DNA of 25,461 bases. Origin: a virus. Taxonomy: Duplodnaviria; Caudoviricetes. A program made the translations under genes and the position numbers. Below the pieces are notes generated by a model that had not been told where the DNA came from, made no database searches, and worked only from the letters and a program-made list of their open reading frames with translations. The DNA lies in the IMG/VR virus record IMGVR_UViG_3300034117_000234, positions 1-25,461 of that record, one strand, 5' to 3'. Numbering within the stretch: position 1 is the stretch's first letter; every line of letters begins with the position of its first letter. Below, piece after piece: positions 3,393 to 22,440 of this stretch.

Positions 3393-3659
3393 CTACGGCC
3401 GACAATGTTCAACTTCCACGCAATCCTTATGACCGCAAATTCTCAGCCCGATCATAAACAGCTCGCCGTCCACAATCGGATTGTCGTCCCCGTCAAACTC
3501 CCCACCCCAAGGCTTACAAGGCTTACCAAAACCATAACTAATAGTCTTCGCTGGACGCATACGGCAACTAAAGCACAAGCCGTCTTTACGCTCCCGCTTA
3601 TCCAAGGCCACGAAACTCACCTGCCCGCACCTAACGCAAACTATCTTCTTATCGTCCAC
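3393..3659 (-). CDS. Small Cys/His-rich putative zinc-binding protein
   Basis: CVRC, CFSC, CKPW and CGHKDCVEVEH motifs; leaderless GTG start. Confidence 0.75.
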   Translation of the reverse strand: MDDKKIVCVRCGQVSFVALDKRERKDGLCFSCRMRPAKTISYGFGKPCKPWGGEFDGDDNPIVDGELFMIGLRICGHKDCVEVEHCRP

Positions 3660-3665
3660 CCTAAA

Positions 3666-3674
3666 ACCCTAGCA
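3666..3674 (-). promoter_or_regulatory. Extended -10 promoter (TGC-TAGGGT) for a leaderless transcript starting at GTG 3659
   Basis: TGnTAnnnT, then 6 nt, then the start codon. Confidence 0.65.
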
Positions 3675-3699
3675 GTTCTAATAAACGCTTATGGGTTCT

Positions 3700-4070
3700 C
3701 GAAGGGAGAGAGAAGGGCTTAGTTACGCGCCAACTCTCAAACGCCAAGGGACTCTTGGGTTTCGGTCGGGGTCGAGTCTTACGATATCGACTATCTACGC
3801 CATATGCGATAACGGGCTTCTTCGGTTACTAGGTAGATACGGGTTAGTAACGCCGCTATTGCTCTGCCGATCTCTCTTCGGCTTTTGCTCGGCCAAGGCT
3901 ACATTTCTGCGCCGAGCATACTAAACAGTCTGGCTCTAACCCACTGAAACCGCGACTATGAATCGACGGGAAATTGACTTTAGTTCGGGTTAACGAGTTG
4001 GCACTCTCCGAACACTTGGCCGAAGCCAAGATTTTACCCGAATAGTTCGGGCCTGTTGCTATTCAGTTAT
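3700..4070 (-). ncRNA. Candidate large structured non-coding RNA (boundaries approximate)
   Basis: ORF-free on the minus strand; about 9 hairpins including C(UUCG)G, GAAA and GUAA tetraloops; two pseudoknot pairings; G-U wobbles work only on the minus strand. Confidence 0.65.
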
Positions 4071-17309: not shown

Positions 17310-18503
17310 TTAGCGTTTGAGCAATTTAGTTAGCGTCGGCAACCAATGATTCTGCCAAACAGTTTCGGAATCGAACTGTTGAGCAAACTCGACTGACTTC
17401 TTGGAGACTCCACGCTCGGCTTTATACGCTTCTTCGAGCGCGGCGACAATCGACGGGACTAGCGGGACTTGCCAGAAAGACGACTGAGAAGCGTCCCAAG
17501 TAGGTTGCCCTTCGACTAGCCAAGAGTCGTCTGAAACTAGATCTGGAGTAGCGGCCCAGTTTGAGCCGATAGTCCGCACTCCGCAAGCCTGGGCTTCAAT
17601 AGTTGGAACTCCAAATCCTTCTCCGAAGGACGGGGCAAGAAATACGTCCATAGTCGAATAAAGCCCTGCTAAGTCTGTATTAGAGATTCCGTATTTATAG
17701 TCGATAAAAGGCGCAAACAAAACTGCTTCCTTCGGGATACCGAAAGCCTGAACCATAGTAATAAGATTCCAACCGCCCGCACTCCCTAACGGGTCTGTGT
17801 GTAGATAAAGCACCGCGTCTGGGTGCGACTGCCTAAAGATCGAGAAAGCCAGTAAATTCTCGCTAAAGGCTTTGCGGTGAATAAGGCCCGAAGCTTTATT
17901 CGCGGCGTTCATACCAATAACAAACTGGTCCTTCACGCCAAGATACTCTCTGCCGGGTTGCCCGCCGATCGTAGCCGTCGGCTTGAATACCTTTGTGTCT
18001 ACGACGTGCGGAACATACTCGCAAGCAATACCCTTCGACTCCATTTGCCGAACCCCGAACGGGCTCATAGCGATAGGTGTTACGTTCTCTTTCCGCAGGA
18101 ACTCTTCGACCATAGGCGGCATAGTAACGTGATCAAGCGGAGTCCACCAAGCTACAGGGTGCTTATCCCACGCTTTACCCTTGATAACCCAGCAGTCATA
18201 CAGACCTAAAAGCAAATCGGGCTGGTCTCCGTTTAGCGATTTCCAGTGCGCGTGATTCATAGGCGCAACGTCATTCGAATAAGGGTCGCTACCCCGCGCA
18301 TAGTGCGGAATCTCCCCATAAGCCGTTCTATAAGTAGATCGGTTGCCTTCAAGACCATAATTCGACTGAGCGGCCACGTCAAGCCCCGCCCGCTTCATCT
18401 GTTCAATAAGAACCTGAGCTTGGACCCCGTAGCCCGTAGGTTGCCCCGGACTGTTTGAGTAGAGCGTTACAGTGCCCTTTAGTTTCTGCGTAGATTTAGC
18501 CAT
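17310..18503 (-). CDS. GT-B (GT4-like) glycosyltransferase
   Basis: TGYG near the N-terminus; HVVDTKVF; DVFLAPSFGEGFGVPTIEAQACG (ExFGxxxxE). Confidence 0.9.
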   Translation of the reverse strand: MAKSTQKLKGTVTLYSNSPGQPTGYGVQAQVLIEQMKRAGLDVAAQSNYGLEGNRSTYRTAYGEIPHYARGSDPYSNDVAPMNHAHWKSLNGDQPDLLLGLYDCWVIKGKAWDKHPVAWWTPLDHVTMPPMVEEFLRKENVTPIAMSPFGVRQMESKGIACEYVPHVVDTKVFKPTATIGGQPGREYLGVKDQFVIGMNAANKASGLIHRKAFSENLLAFSIFRQSHPDAVLYLHTDPLGSAGGWNLITMVQAFGIPKEAVLFAPFIDYKYGISNTDLAGLYSTMDVFLAPSFGEGFGVPTIEAQACGVRTIGSNWAATPDLVSDDSWLVEGQPTWDASQSSFWQVPLVPSIVAALEEAYKAERGVSKKSVEFAQQFDSETVWQNHWLPTLTKLLKR

Positions 18504-18668: not shown

Positions 18669-19823
18669 TTAGCTTGCGCCACCCTTGAAGAAACCTACGT
18701 GGCTAGGAATGGTCAAGCCACCGCCAACACGAACAGTTCCCCGGAAAGTTGTAACGTCTGTGTTGAAAGCGTAGTCGCTTGACTGTGCGATCTGGATTCC
18801 ACCTGCGACGCGAACTTTGTAAGACGGCAAGTGCCCAAATAGGACTGACTTAGTGCCAGTTCCAGTTGCCGGGACTGCCGGGTTCTCGAAGACAGGGTAA
18901 CCGAGCAACTGTGCTGGCTGTCCGTTTACTGCGTTGTCTAGCCAGATGTAATTGCCCGCGCCGTCTTTAAGTTTGCGCGCGGCCGCGATACCACTCTTAG
19001 ACATTTGGAAACCGAGCCCGGGCAAAACGCGAGCTCCGTCGGCAATTCCATATACCAAGTCGATTAGATTTTCGTAACTCGCAACACCAGAAACTCCAGT
19101 GCCACCTGTTACAACTGAGCCCGCTGAAGTTACAAGACCAGCAGTTCCAGTAGTTAGTTCCGCGTTCATAGCAATACCTAGAGACGTGCCCAACTGTTGC
19201 GCGATATATGCGCTAATGTCGAACCCTGCGTCGGCTACTAGTTCGTTAGCAACACTAACTAGCGCACCGAACTTCGTAGCTCCAAGAGTAATGCTTGCGA
19301 AAGTAGGGTTGCTCTCTGGAACTGCCGAACCTGCCGCAGTTGCGGTCGAAGATGAAATTGCGGTGGCAGTTGGAATGACCAAGTTCTCCCCGGAAGTTGT
19401 GTTGAAAACTTCTGAAGTCTGAAGCATAGGTCCTACGAGCGTAGCAATTTGAAACACCTGGTCGTAAAAACTGCTTCCGACAGTGTTCGCGCTTGGCACA
19501 AGAGCGGCGCGACGTGAGAACTCAGTTCCGCGCATTTCACCGCGAGCAATTGAACGCAAAACGTCTGCGTCTGAACTCGAAGTTTCAGCGGTAGGAGTGA
19601 ATGAAGCCGCCGCCTGAGCCGCTTCAGCCGAACGCTGTGCGACCTTCTGTGCGGTAGCGATTGAAGAGTCCGCTGAAGCGATATCTGCTTCTAGGCGGTC
19701 GATCTTCTGTAGATCTTCGGCAGACAATCCGCGCTTCTCCTGCTCGGCTAGGTCGATAACTTCTCGGACCTGCGCGATTAGGTTTGAACGAACGTCTGCC
19801 TGAGCTTTAATAAACTCAGACAT
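18669..19823 (-). CDS. Major capsid protein, HK97 family
   Basis: N-terminal coiled-coil delta domain; KFGALVSVANELVADA, LKDGAGNYIW and LLGYPV motifs; AAGGA RBS. Confidence 0.93.
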   Translation of the reverse strand: MSEFIKAQADVRSNLIAQVREVIDLAEQEKRGLSAEDLQKIDRLEADIASADSSIATAQKVAQRSAEAAQAAASFTPTAETSSSDADVLRSIARGEMRGTEFSRRAALVPSANTVGSSFYDQVFQIATLVGPMLQTSEVFNTTSGENLVIPTATAISSSTATAAGSAVPESNPTFASITLGATKFGALVSVANELVADAGFDISAYIAQQLGTSLGIAMNAELTTGTAGLVTSAGSVVTGGTGVSGVASYENLIDLVYGIADGARVLPGLGFQMSKSGIAAARKLKDGAGNYIWLDNAVNGQPAQLLGYPVFENPAVPATGTGTKSVLFGHLPSYKVRVAGGIQIAQSSDYAFNTDVTTFRGTVRVGGGLTIPSHVGFFKGGAS

Positions 19824-19853: not shown

Positions 19854-19901
19854 TTCTGCCGAGCAGACTCAGAGCAGAGCAGGTCGAGCAGACTCAGAAC
19901 C
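19854..19901 (-). promoter_or_regulatory. Twin bulged hairpins (14-bp direct repeat) in the capsid 5' UTR
   Basis: CGAGCAGACTCAGA at 19860-19873 and 19885-19898; each copy folds as stem / CU bulge / GAG-UCUG-CUC. Confidence 0.7.
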
Positions 19902-19909
19902 TATAAACA

Positions 19910-19915
19910 ATTCTA
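19910..19915 (-). promoter_or_regulatory. -10 element TAGAAT of the capsid promoter
   Basis: TAnnnT located so that +1 falls at about 19902-19904, just before the first hairpin. Confidence 0.6.
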
Positions 19916-19937: not shown

Positions 19938-20021
19938 TGGTGGACTAGCAGAGAATCGAACTCTGGTCTTGTCGCTTCTCACTGAGAGTCTTAGACGACA
20001 ATCGAAACCATTACCTAGCCC
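19938..20021 (-). ncRNA. Minimal tmRNA-like RNA: tRNA-like domain only, no mRNA-like domain
   Basis: GGGCUAG/CUAGUCC acceptor stem with G3-U wobble, A discriminator and encoded CCA; stemless D-loop containing GGUUUCGA; helix UUGUCG/CGACAA; GAC linker; T arm CAGAG-UUCGAUU-CUCUG. Confidence 0.85.
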
Positions 20022-20027
20022 CAGTAA

Positions 20028-20033
20028 ACATTA
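20028..20033 (-). promoter_or_regulatory. -10 element TAATGT for the tmRNA-like RNA
   Basis: TAnnnT plus 6 nt places +1 exactly at G1 (20021). Confidence 0.55.
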
Positions 20034-20042
20034 TTACCAAGC

Positions 20043-20085
20043 AAAGAAAACCCCGCTAGCCGAAAGGGTTAGAAGACTAGCGGGG
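20043..20085 (-). terminator. Intrinsic terminator ending the terminase-portal-protease operon
   Basis: 11-bp stem CCCCGCUAGUC/GGCUAGCGGGG followed by UUUUCUUU. Confidence 0.8.
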
Positions 20086-20099
20086 AACTCGCCGAGCGA

Positions 20100-20258
20100 T
20101 TAGCGAGTTTCTTCTGCGGCTTTCACGCGAACTTCTTTAGTCGCGTTAGCCGAGTTTTGAATAGCGTCGATAAGTTCCTTGACCACGCCGACGCTAGGGT
20201 CTCCAGCGACTTCCTTGATAAGTTTTACCGCTAGTTCGATTTCGTCTTTCGTTGCCAT
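20100..20258 (-). CDS. Small head-module protein (52 aa; not in ORF track)
   Basis: Manual translation MATKDEIELAVKLIKEVAGDPSVGVVKELIDAIQNSANATKEVRVKAAEETR; TAATG coupling. Confidence 0.75.
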   Translation of the reverse strand: MATKDEIELAVKLIKEVAGDPSVGVVKELIDAIQNSANATKEVRVKAAEETR

Positions 20259-22180
20259 TAGATTCCTAACATTAGTAGATCGAGCTTCTTCTTCTTCAGC
20301 GCCAAAATGTCGCCTTCGACTTCTTGAACTTCTGGAGTCTTAGTAAGTTTACTAACTACTTCGCTAACTAGATTTGCTTGCTCCGCTTCTAGTTCTTCTC
20401 CAAGTTCAAGTTTTAGCAAAGCGTCTGCCAGAGTGTCTGCGTCTATCGCGCCTTCAATCGAGCGAACCGAAGTCGTCCCAGTTGTAGACATATATGCCGG
20501 GAAAGCAACTAAAGATACTTCGTGAAGCGAAACTCGATTTAGGGTTCGAACGTTACCCGTCTTATCCCAAGAGTCGCCGCCCTGCGGAACAGTAAAGCCA
20601 AAGCTCATAGCCGAAACGTCCCCACGTTTAAGAAGAACAGAAGCGTCCCGCCCTGCCTGAGTGTCCGGGAGAGAAGCAATAGCCTTCAAGCCGAAAGAAT
20701 CTTCTACTAGGCGCAGGGTCCCCGCTCTAGTCGATCCAAGAACGATTCCCGTATCGTGATTCCAGAGAAGCTTTATATCGTTCCTAGACTGAAGGCTCTT
20801 GCGGAAAGCACCCGGCGCGATACGTTCGATAAAGGGTAGCGGGCTAGAGTCTGAATTGAAAACAGCCGCGTAGCCTTCGAAGGTCATTCCGTCGCCTGTT
20901 TCACGAATCTCGAACTTTACGTCTGCGGTTCGGGTTTCATTAGGGTTCTTGGCCCTGCCTTCGTCCGATACGCCTTCGATTCTGGCCTTTATTGCGTAAG
21001 CCGCGTTTAGCCACTTCGTTCGGGTAGGAATAACCATAGACTCGGTAAGTTCTGGAAGTTCTTCGGGCTCGATAAGCGGCTGGACCTTCTTTAGATCGGC
21101 GATAAGGACAGTAACAGTTAGGCCAGTGGATTCCCAGTTTCTATCTTCTTCTTCGTAGATAGTAACCTGAGCAGAATCGCCTTCAAGGGCTACAACTTCC
21201 CCAGCATAGGCTTCAGTCCCAATAAGCCAAGCAACATAGTCGCCGACGGCTAGTTCGTCTGGGAGAGCGCGGGTCTGTTCAATCATACGTTCGCTTTCTT
21301 CTTGTTCTCTAATTCTAGCAACCACCGAGTCGGCGTAATCTTGAGCGCGGCGAGCGGCGGTCTTGCTTGGTCCACTACCCCAGAGAAGGTGAGCAACTAC
21401 GCCCGCCGAAGGATAGTTGTCTGAATTAGGGTTCGCGTCTGGACTATCAAGGTCTACTAGGTGGCGGGCAATCCACGCCGCTATTCGAATCCATTTGTCG
21501 TCTGAAACTTGGCCTACTGCCATAAGTCGAGCTTCTCGGATAGTTCTATCGACTACGCCGTCGCCCGCTAGTCCCTGCTCGTAGTAGCGAAGTCCTTGTC
21601 TGGCCGCCGCTCTCATATAGGCGGGTGCGTCCTGATTTATCGCGCGAACCGAGTTCTCGTCTGGGAGAGCAACAGGGTCAGTCGCTTTTAGACCGAGTGT
21701 GCGGTAAGCCGCGAGCGCGTCATAGTTATTCTCGACGACTTCGATAATGTTATAGGTTTCGAGAAGTTTCTCGGCGGTGGCCCGCTTGTATTCGGTCTGA
21801 TCTTCGCTAGAACCTGGGTTCATTATTAGGCGGGTATAAGAAACGCCCAAATCGTCTAGGGTCTGCTTAGTGTCCGCTTCGTCGTCTACAGACCTGCCCG
21901 TAACTATGAAAAGCGCCGCGTCGAGCGACTGAAGATAGTTATAGGTTTTGCGAATTAGAGAATTACCACGAATAAGAGTGTCGTCAAGATCACTAATAAC
22001 AATAGGTTCGCCCGCTTCATTTCTCTCTCCCATAAAAGGTTCGTCGTCGCCAAGACTAATAGCGACCGCCTGAGCAATAGCCGAGTCTTTTGTTTCGTGG
22101 CAACCGAAAACTTCGCCGCCCTGATCGACTACCGCCCAGCCTGAGCAGTCCGCCGCTTCGTCCGTAATGTAGTAAGGCAT
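20258..22180 (-). CDS. Multidomain prohead protease (N-terminal HAD-like and other domains; C-terminal HK97-type protease)
   Basis: Start trimmed to MPYY (TAATG coupling). C-terminal FEGYAAVFN...LLWNHD...MSFGF...LHEVSLVAFPAY; N-terminal ISDLDDTL and IVTGR. Confidence 0.88.
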   Translation of the reverse strand: MPYYITDEAADCSGWAVVDQGGEVFGCHETKDSAIAQAVAISLGDDEPFMGERNEAGEPIVISDLDDTLIRGNSLIRKTYNYLQSLDAALFIVTGRSVDDEADTKQTLDDLGVSYTRLIMNPGSSEDQTEYKRATAEKLLETYNIIEVVENNYDALAAYRTLGLKATDPVALPDENSVRAINQDAPAYMRAAARQGLRYYEQGLAGDGVVDRTIREARLMAVGQVSDDKWIRIAAWIARHLVDLDSPDANPNSDNYPSAGVVAHLLWGSGPSKTAARRAQDYADSVVARIREQEESERMIEQTRALPDELAVGDYVAWLIGTEAYAGEVVALEGDSAQVTIYEEEDRNWESTGLTVTVLIADLKKVQPLIEPEELPELTESMVIPTRTKWLNAAYAIKARIEGVSDEGRAKNPNETRTADVKFEIRETGDGMTFEGYAAVFNSDSSPLPFIERIAPGAFRKSLQSRNDIKLLWNHDTGIVLGSTRAGTLRLVEDSFGLKAIASLPDTQAGRDASVLLKRGDVSAMSFGFTVPQGGDSWDKTGNVRTLNRVSLHEVSLVAFPAYMSTTGTTSVRSIEGAIDADTLADALLKLELGEELEAEQANLVSEVVSKLTKTPEVQEVEGDILALKKKKLDLLMLGI

Positions 22181-22440
22181 TAGGTTACCTTCAGCCAACT
22201 AACTAAGTGATTACTTGAACTTGATACAACCCAAACAGAATCACCGGGAGAAACCTGAATCTCTGTGGAATCGGTCTTTTCTAAAATAAGTCCATTAGAA
22301 GTTGTAACGTCGCCGCCGCCAAGATAAAGATTTATCTGATTATCGTTATTATGGATATGTAAACGATAAACGCTTTGGCTTGTGCCGTTCAGTTGAACGC
22401 GCGTAGTTCCTACTGTAACTTGCCCCGAACTAATTGCCAT
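22180..22440 (-). CDS. Small beta-rich virion-associated hypothetical protein
   Basis: ORF track; coupled to the portal gene. Confidence 0.7.
   Translation of the reverse strand: MAISSGQVTVGTTRVQLNGTSQSVYRLHIHNNDNQINLYLGGGDVTTSNGLILEKTDSTEIQVSPGDSVWVVSSSSNHLVSWLKVT

Follow-up and report, generated by a model that had tools for sequence, protein, structure and literature searches.

A tag-less 84-nt tmRNA in a tailed-phage genome belongs to a family present, yet unannotated, in hundreds of phage sequences

An 84-nt element on the minus strand of a virus record of the Caudoviricetes, at 20021-19938 of the 25.5-kb stretch analyzed here (the window, 25,461 nt; the record is 81% complete), is the tRNA-like end of a tmRNA without an anticodon or a tag reading frame. 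The first-pass annotation had read it as a mini-tmRNA, a tmRNA tRNA-like domain (TLD) lacking the coding domain, and this identity is confirmed. RNAs of this kind turn up without annotation in hundreds of phage sequences; ARAGORN and Rfam both miss the window copy. The window copy itself is an ordinary member of its family; the gain lies in the breadth of the family, its apparent mobility, its absolute alanine identity and its carriers among cultured phages.

Fold and parts of the element

The minus-strand sequence reads as had been quoted, and its parse (Table 1) agrees with the 7-bp acceptor stem with G3-U, the discriminator A, the CCA and the perfect T arm described before, as well as with the missing D stem and anticodon arm. 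All seven acceptor positions pair (20021-20015 with 19948-19942, including G3 (20019)·U70 (19944)). The D-loop and the GAC connector are separated by 33 nt in which helix 2 is closed short; the 5' half precedes the 3' half, and there is no tag frame. Closure of helix 2 after some 20 nt, as first described, corresponds to the 21 nt inside P2a, to which an A-rich internal loop and a 3-bp P2b have to be added. The D-loop and GAC motifs and the score against model R1, which was built from 15 gap-free family members excluding the window copy and the RNA of Mycobacterium phage DS6A, likewise uphold the assignment to a tmRNA tRNA-like domain without a tag-coding domain.

A structural descriptor matched once in the window, whereas 300 sequences simulated from it with a first-order Markov model gave no match. 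Folding of the single sequence was unremarkable (z -1.0; 35 of 200 shuffles folded equally well), and the tmRNA-like fold is 3.1 kcal/mol less stable than the minimum-energy fold of the single sequence. ARAGORN reported 0 genes in the window and missed the element, which scored 19.7 bits with the Rfam tRNA model (RF00005), below the cut-off of 29, and did not match the Rfam tmRNA model (RF00023; cut-off 47 bits) or the mt-tmRNA model RF02544. The tmRNA-end hits that had been expected from ARAGORN and Rfam tmRNA therefore did not appear. A canonical tRNA was rejected, in line with the annotation, as the element has no D stem and no anticodon arm or loop, scores below the RF00005 cut-off and is not called by ARAGORN. 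A bacterial Y RNA was also rejected: no Ro gene was found among the window ORFs scanned, and the ends form a CCA acceptor.

Table 1. Parts of the mini-tmRNA and neighboring features in the window
Feature	Position	Strand	Basis or remark
TLD-only (tag-less) tmRNA, 84 nt	19938..20021	-	parse; 58.5 bits with model R1; covariation
Acceptor stem 5' strand, G3 at 20019	20015..20021	-	sequence; covarying pairs 4-7
Stemless D-loop, 13 nt, CGA at end, G18 and G19	20002..20014	-	end motif common to full-length tmRNAs; 18/55 covariation
P2a, A-rich internal loop and P2b hairpin, in place of the tag domain	19969..20001	-	pairing counts; DS6A architecture
P2a strands	20001-19996 with 19974-19969	-	6 bp, 21 nt enclosed
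P2b hairpin, 3 bp	19988-19978	-	inside P2a
GAC connector and T arm (5-bp T stem)	19949..19968	-	T stem pairing; GAC frequency in family
Acceptor 3' strand, U70 (19944), discriminator A73 (19941), encoded CCA	19938..19948	-	sequence
Major capsid gene	18669..19823	-	phrog_10; nearest cultured match Pontimonas phage phiPsal1, 49.5%
Prohead protease gene	20258..22198	-	phrog_80; PF04586
Conserved 52-aa ORF after protease gene	20100..20258	-	seen in relatives compared; overlaps protease stop codon; no Pfam family
GC-rich hairpin and U tract, likely intrinsic terminator of upstream operon	20043..20085	-	sequence; stems of other letters in relatives
Candidate -10 box, 6 nt before G1	20028..20033	-	read from the sequence
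Candidate -10 box of capsid promoter	19910..19915	-	read from the sequence; TAnnnT here in relatives with and without mini-tmRNA

A widespread family and its carriers

Two patterns were run against IMG/VR. Pattern 1, in which no pairing was required, gave at least 120 loci listed and an estimated 410 or so, and 97 of 99 unique sequences among the matches listed folded (acceptor 6-7 of 7, perfect T stem); the two dropped from these matches are ends of full-length tmRNAs. For pattern 2, which covers other D-loops, at least 120 loci were listed, about 220 were estimated, and 77 of 94 unique sequences among the matches listed passed folding, the 17 dropped there being chance matches and probable members with a bulged P2a. 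Together, 174 of 193 unique sequences among the matches listed fold. Since the structural descriptor missed the RNAs of DS6A (which has CAC) and of Streptomyces phage Riptide as well as locus L217, the pattern counts are lower bounds. Family lengths range from 69 to 98 nt.

A short subclass of 69-73 nt without P2b accounted for 33 of the 77 unique pattern 2 sequences among the matches listed, nearly all of them with A18 and G55; its loci include L225, L228, L233, L239 and L257 (about 1500-1570), and terminase genes adjoin in L228 and L257. Two copies per record occurred at L148:176-255 and L148:1488-1566 and at G033:C1:42520-42602 and 109671-109753; the second L148 copy has an unusual T loop opening with G, which is outside the patterns' reach.

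In GTDB genomes 19 loci matched, and 15 of these score at least 42 bits; they lie in assemblies named Streptomyces, Cellulosimicrobium, Mycobacterium, Christensenella, Sinomicrobium, Prochlorococcus and others, where they may be prophages or mis-binned contigs. Short copies in the bacterial assemblies reached 54.5-76.8 bits with RF00023 (cut-off 47), with tRNA-sized hits at 37.5 bits or less; relatives overall scored 33.5-76.8 bits. When cultured phages were searched by BLAST with the element, only short 3'-end matches appeared, among them 28 nt shared with the 3' end of phage tRNA-Ala genes, and the L092 homolog used as query led to Streptomyces phages. An unannotated mini-tmRNA stands inside the tRNA arrays of three cultured Streptomyces phages, BRock, Shaeky and Riptide; the BRock and Shaeky papers name tmRNA only in a reference title. 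These copies make the role of a tag-less tmRNA testable in cultured phage-host pairs. The tRNA region of Riptide also contains, some 2 kb away from the mini-tmRNA, a gene for a Ro-like RNA-binding protein (L223:1-335).

Covariation and invariant positions

The family is under strong selection. When 91 matches were aligned with R1, 96.6% of the stem cells paired and all four helices covaried, with a covariation score of 0.768, where shuffles gave 0.163 and slid controls 0.11 or less; this alignment leans to the model, and the raw parse without alignment shows the same pair swaps. By helix, pairing in the 91 aligned sequences amounted to 99.8% for the T stem, 94.6% for P2a and 91.0% for P2b, and GAC occurred in 89 of them. 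The R1 seed of 15 is 98.2% paired, with double changes in 15 of 22 pairs. The check for conservation and covariation in related phages that the annotation had proposed thus turned out in its favor.

G3·U70 was present in all folding sequences among the matches listed (97/97 and 77/77, together 174/174), although both patterns permitted C70 and pattern 1 left position 3 free, and acceptor pairs 4-6 swap among all pair types while G3·U70 stays. Control scans of the whole IMG/VR collection for a purine at position 70 and for a non-A discriminator yielded three hits each, none of which folds, and an apparent A3·U70 in L154 proved to be a two-base alignment shift. An encoded CCA ends only 79 of the 174 folding sequences among the matches listed (32/97 for pattern 1 and 47/77 for pattern 2). 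D-loop position 18 covaries with T-loop position 55 (G·U in 121, A·G in 43 and other combinations in 10 of the 174 among the matches listed). In the 43, A18 and G55 are strictly reciprocal, but these cases are not independent, about 31 sharing one D-loop type, mostly of the short subclass; 3 of 10 full-length tmRNAs likewise combine A18 and G55.

The same data bear on whether the element might be a decayed ssrA, an attachment-site remnant or an odd tRNA-Ala. The weak Rfam tRNA match of 19.7 bits and the 28-nt match to phage tRNA-Ala genes would suit such an origin, and ssrA is reported as a frequent phage integration site (PMC11915505). However, all four helices covary and both tmRNA ends are present. 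Of the 14 bacterial assemblies that have a short copy, 10 contain a full-length tmRNA as well, and in all 10 the short copy shares just 4-8 terminal bases with the resident tmRNA. Of 401 genomes of the Cellulosimicrobium order a single one had a match, of 19 internal nt alone. No tyrosine integrase was found in the window, from a record 81% complete, and no integrase among the 100 of 211 flanking ORFs scanned. A tRNA-Ala would have an anticodon loop, and true tRNA-Ala genes adjoin the mini-tmRNA in L105, L158, L213, Shaeky and Riptide. Covariation and divergence from the host ssrA ends therefore rule out an att remnant and also a decayed gene, against which the annotation had argued, and we give this whole group of explanations almost no credence. 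The annotation's own argument against decay, drawn from the unusual acceptor letters, carries little weight, as full-length bacterial tmRNAs vary there too.

Genome setting and transcription

The minus strand of the window encodes terminase, portal, prohead protease, capsid, tail and recombination genes, and an actinobacterial host is inferred from the nearest cultured capsid, that of phiPsal1. The 646-aa protease ORF also has a HAD acid-phosphatase-like match (PF03767) at residues 84-164, N-terminal to the S78 domain, and a glycosyltransferase gene (17310-18503, minus strand) lies between the capsid and head-tail adaptor genes. ARAGORN and Rfam tRNA found no tRNA gene in the window phage.

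A GC-rich hairpin with a U tract is followed by the mini-tmRNA and then by the capsid promoter region. The annotation had placed a terminator before the element and a -10 box setting +1 on G1, and had concluded that the RNA is selected and separately transcribed. Selection is borne out by the covariation. The terminator and the box can be read from the sequence and in some relatives: a TAnnnT box stands at the same spacing, but as another hexamer, in L005-L008, whereas it is absent in L003, L004 and L013. A consensus promoter and terminator scanner reported 0 promoters and 0 terminators in the region, its hairpin loops being limited to 8 nt or less and the loop of the terminator candidate measuring 13 nt. 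Among the matches listed, a TAnnnT box at spacing 5-7 preceded 15 of 93 family members, against a background with a mean of 4.2 and a maximum of 16. An own promoter is therefore not a general feature of the family, and separate transcription of the window copy is plausible. In a small RNA run (7% of words, contigs only) a relative's capsid gene was covered and 36 nt of the element occurred on an unrelated contig, which speaks neither for nor against expression.

The protease-capsid gap is a hotspot of stacked small non-coding cassettes, each opening with a TAnnnT box right after a terminator (upstream of the capsid gene in L018 at about 3700-3800, L036 at about 3500-3900, L054 at about 1830-2200, L073 and L079). 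One unidentified RNA-like sequence is common to L036 and L073 and another to L036, L054 and L079; the cassettes gave no Rfam match at gathering scores. In the capsid leader (19856-19901, minus strand), a small hairpin motif occurs twice in tandem ahead of the capsid gene. By regular expression, 27 of 47 unique relatives have two copies, and the middle stem pair is complementary in 68 of 68 matches, with three pair types. The motif has no match in Rfam and is possibly a protein-binding operator.

Presence at two sites in related phages

The upstream flank measures 400 nt or more in 68 of 80 capsid-related loci. The descriptor located a mini-tmRNA at the protease-capsid site in 14 loci, namely 13 of these 68 and the short L008, while L009, with a capsid 93% identical, shows a clean absence at this site. 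In a quick tree built from 55 capsid rows, presence at the site needs five changes, four of them forced by strong branches.

The reading that relatives without the RNA at the protease-capsid site lack it altogether was overturned by whole-record searches: six of nine such records that are at least 89% complete carry one elsewhere, as does 1 of 20 shorter records. Across the 16 related records searched that are each at least 79% complete, 11, including four picked as known carriers, have a mini-tmRNA, at two different sites. In the six fetched cases of the second site, it follows a 389-390-aa ORF without a Pfam family, and in L376 the next gene encodes an NlpC/P60 hydrolase. The second-site copy in L372 (capsid identity 74%) agrees with the window copy in acceptor and T arm, and with L005 in 31 of 33 P2 bases. 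Given this near-identical allele at the second site, the mini-tmRNA gene appears to be mobile between genomic sites in this phage group.

Accessory and mobile behavior of this kind (the five tree changes and the allele at the second site) resembles that of counter-defense genes. The RNA might accordingly be a decoy or spare part, in that a tRNA-shaped molecule without an anticodon loop or coding strand absorbs or escapes defense nucleases cleaving tRNA or tmRNA. In one anti-CRISPR, tmRNA fragments are reported to act (PMC11662646), which is a loose parallel. Such a role, however, does not need G3·U70, A73 and the tmRNA-specific CGA and GAC to be kept, and we consider it unlikely.

Proposed function

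Determinants of AlaRS are G3·U70 and A73, and D-loop/T-loop contacts are reported to be needed for SmpB binding (PMC3968760). SmpB was found in none of 50 carrier records, 19 of which are at least 90% complete; the mini-tmRNA would thus depend on host SmpB, if it uses any. The invariance of G3·U70 across the family argues that the charged form is used in the selected role, so that charging would matter in nature.

The reading that we favor, and regard as evenly balanced between right and wrong, is a TLD-only tmRNA that is likely transcribed and alanylated and would then be bound by SmpB and compete with host tmRNA at stalled ribosomes, likely lowering SsrA tagging. It builds on fold and family membership, on the invariance of G3·U70 and A73, on the covarying D-loop and T-loop and on the absence of both a tag frame and a phage SmpB. 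Either transcription start or RNase P would set the 5' end at G1, CCA would be completed on the RNA, and the host would charge it with alanine. The charged RNA would bind host SmpB (at the elbow) and EF-Tu, and the complex would enter the empty A site of a stalled ribosome instead of host tmRNA and receive the nascent chain on its alanine. With no resume codon, the ribosome could not terminate on it and would next take a further Ala-TLD, host tmRNA or another release factor. The net effect would be to divert host SmpB and stalled ribosomes from the tagging route. Transcription, maturation, alanylation, SmpB/EF-Tu binding, A-site entry and peptidyl transfer are taken here from known tmRNA biochemistry.

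An RNA like that of DS6A was reported to inhibit tmRNA strongly in E. coli (Mao 2009, cited in PMC4131195 and PMC11915505), independently of chargeability (PMC4131195). Since charging was not needed there, the published test leaves the invariance of G3·U70 unexplained; the inhibition may be an over-expression effect. Against a competitor, blocked rescue could cost a lytic phage ribosomes.

The inhibition by chargeable and unchargeable RNA alike, perhaps by titrating SmpB (PMC4131195), and the conserved SmpB-binding features would also suit a passive SmpB sponge that never needs the ribosome. Strict G3·U70 in all 174 folding sequences among the matches listed, with no folding exception in the control scans, speaks against it, although charging might be selected just for RNA stability, which would be compatible with a sponge. 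We regard the sponge as quite improbable.

A tag-free rescuer is possible, if doubtful. Here the charged RNA and host SmpB would eject the broken mRNA and add at least one alanine, and release of the ribosome would fall to another factor, as has been assumed for tmRNA in mitochondria; the phage would gain ribosomes when host nucleases cut mRNA or the coding part of tmRNA. The invariant alanine identity fits such a role, as do the frequent location in tRNA arrays (a tRNA in the fetched flank of 23 of 120 loci among the matches listed; BRock, Shaeky, Riptide), the polyalanine that TLD together with SmpB is reported to form in vitro in the absence of a template (Shimizu and Ueda 2006, cited in PMC3929946) and the mitochondria described as keeping CDS-less tmRNAs with SmpB (PMC11915505). 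On the other hand, the RNA has no stop codon and release needs another factor, the similar RNA inhibited tmRNA in E. coli, and the window phage has no tRNA gene. The suggestion of the first-pass annotation that alanine is added without a degradation tag is weakened: C-terminal alanine tails are reported as ClpXP degrons in Bacillus (PMC8012679), so that added alanine need not spare the protein. In its widest form, which we hold as tentatively, phages of several host phyla would encode a tag-free rescue RNA, a charged mini-tmRNA that hijacks SmpB, ejects broken mRNA, tails stalled chains with alanine and reroutes host quality control. It would then rank with the most frequent phage RNA genes that lack annotation, would be near-core in certain groups of freshwater phages and would shift from one genomic site to another.

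Comparison with known systems

A phage TLD-only tmRNA has already been published for DS6A (PMC4131195, PMC11915505), so that the annotation overstated the novelty of the element. The 2025 tmRNA database is reported to hold nine standard-order CDS-less entries among 97,179 sequences (PMC11915505), further ones of which may be phage-borne, and a literature search conducted largely outside subscription journals met no description of a widespread phage TLD-only tmRNA family. As far as these sources go, the kind was known from one phage and the database has nine standard-order CDS-less entries, yet for two narrow patterns about 410 and about 220 stretches are estimated in IMG/VR. New here are the presence in 11 of 16 near-complete relatives at two sites, the 50 carriers without SmpB and the unannotated copies in cultured Streptomyces phages.

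With tRNA-Ala (RF00005) the mini-tmRNA shares the acceptor identity elements and the T arm, but neither D stem nor anticodon loop. Bacterial tmRNA (RF00023, including full-length phage tmRNAs) agrees with it in acceptor, D-loop motif, GAC, T arm and 18/55 covariation; bacterial tmRNA measures 357-398 nt with pseudoknots and a tag frame, whereas the mini-tmRNA has 84 nt and neither of these. The CDS-less tmRNAs of mitochondria and plastids (RF02544; PMC11915505) are likewise described as tRNA-like domains without a tag frame; they are the organelle's sole tmRNA and mostly permuted, whereas the viral RNA would coexist with a full host tmRNA.

The closest counterpart is the DS6A RNA, located at JN698994 28478-28560, which scored 43.2 bits with RF00023. 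Model R1 gave 63.0 bits for DS6A, 58.5 for the window copy and 26.8 for the best tRNA. Both RNAs are phage-borne, 83-84 nt long and combine G3·U70, A73, a stemless D-loop with a CGA end and a T arm with P2a, an A-rich internal loop and a short P2b hairpin. They differ in their helix letters, in the connector (CAC in DS6A, GAC in the window copy) and in the CCA, which DS6A does not encode. The DS6A RNA precedes a DNA polymerase III gene, and the window copy lies between protease and capsid genes. Judged by sequence and architecture, the window element is a member of the DS6A-type TLD-only tmRNA family, and its kind is not new.
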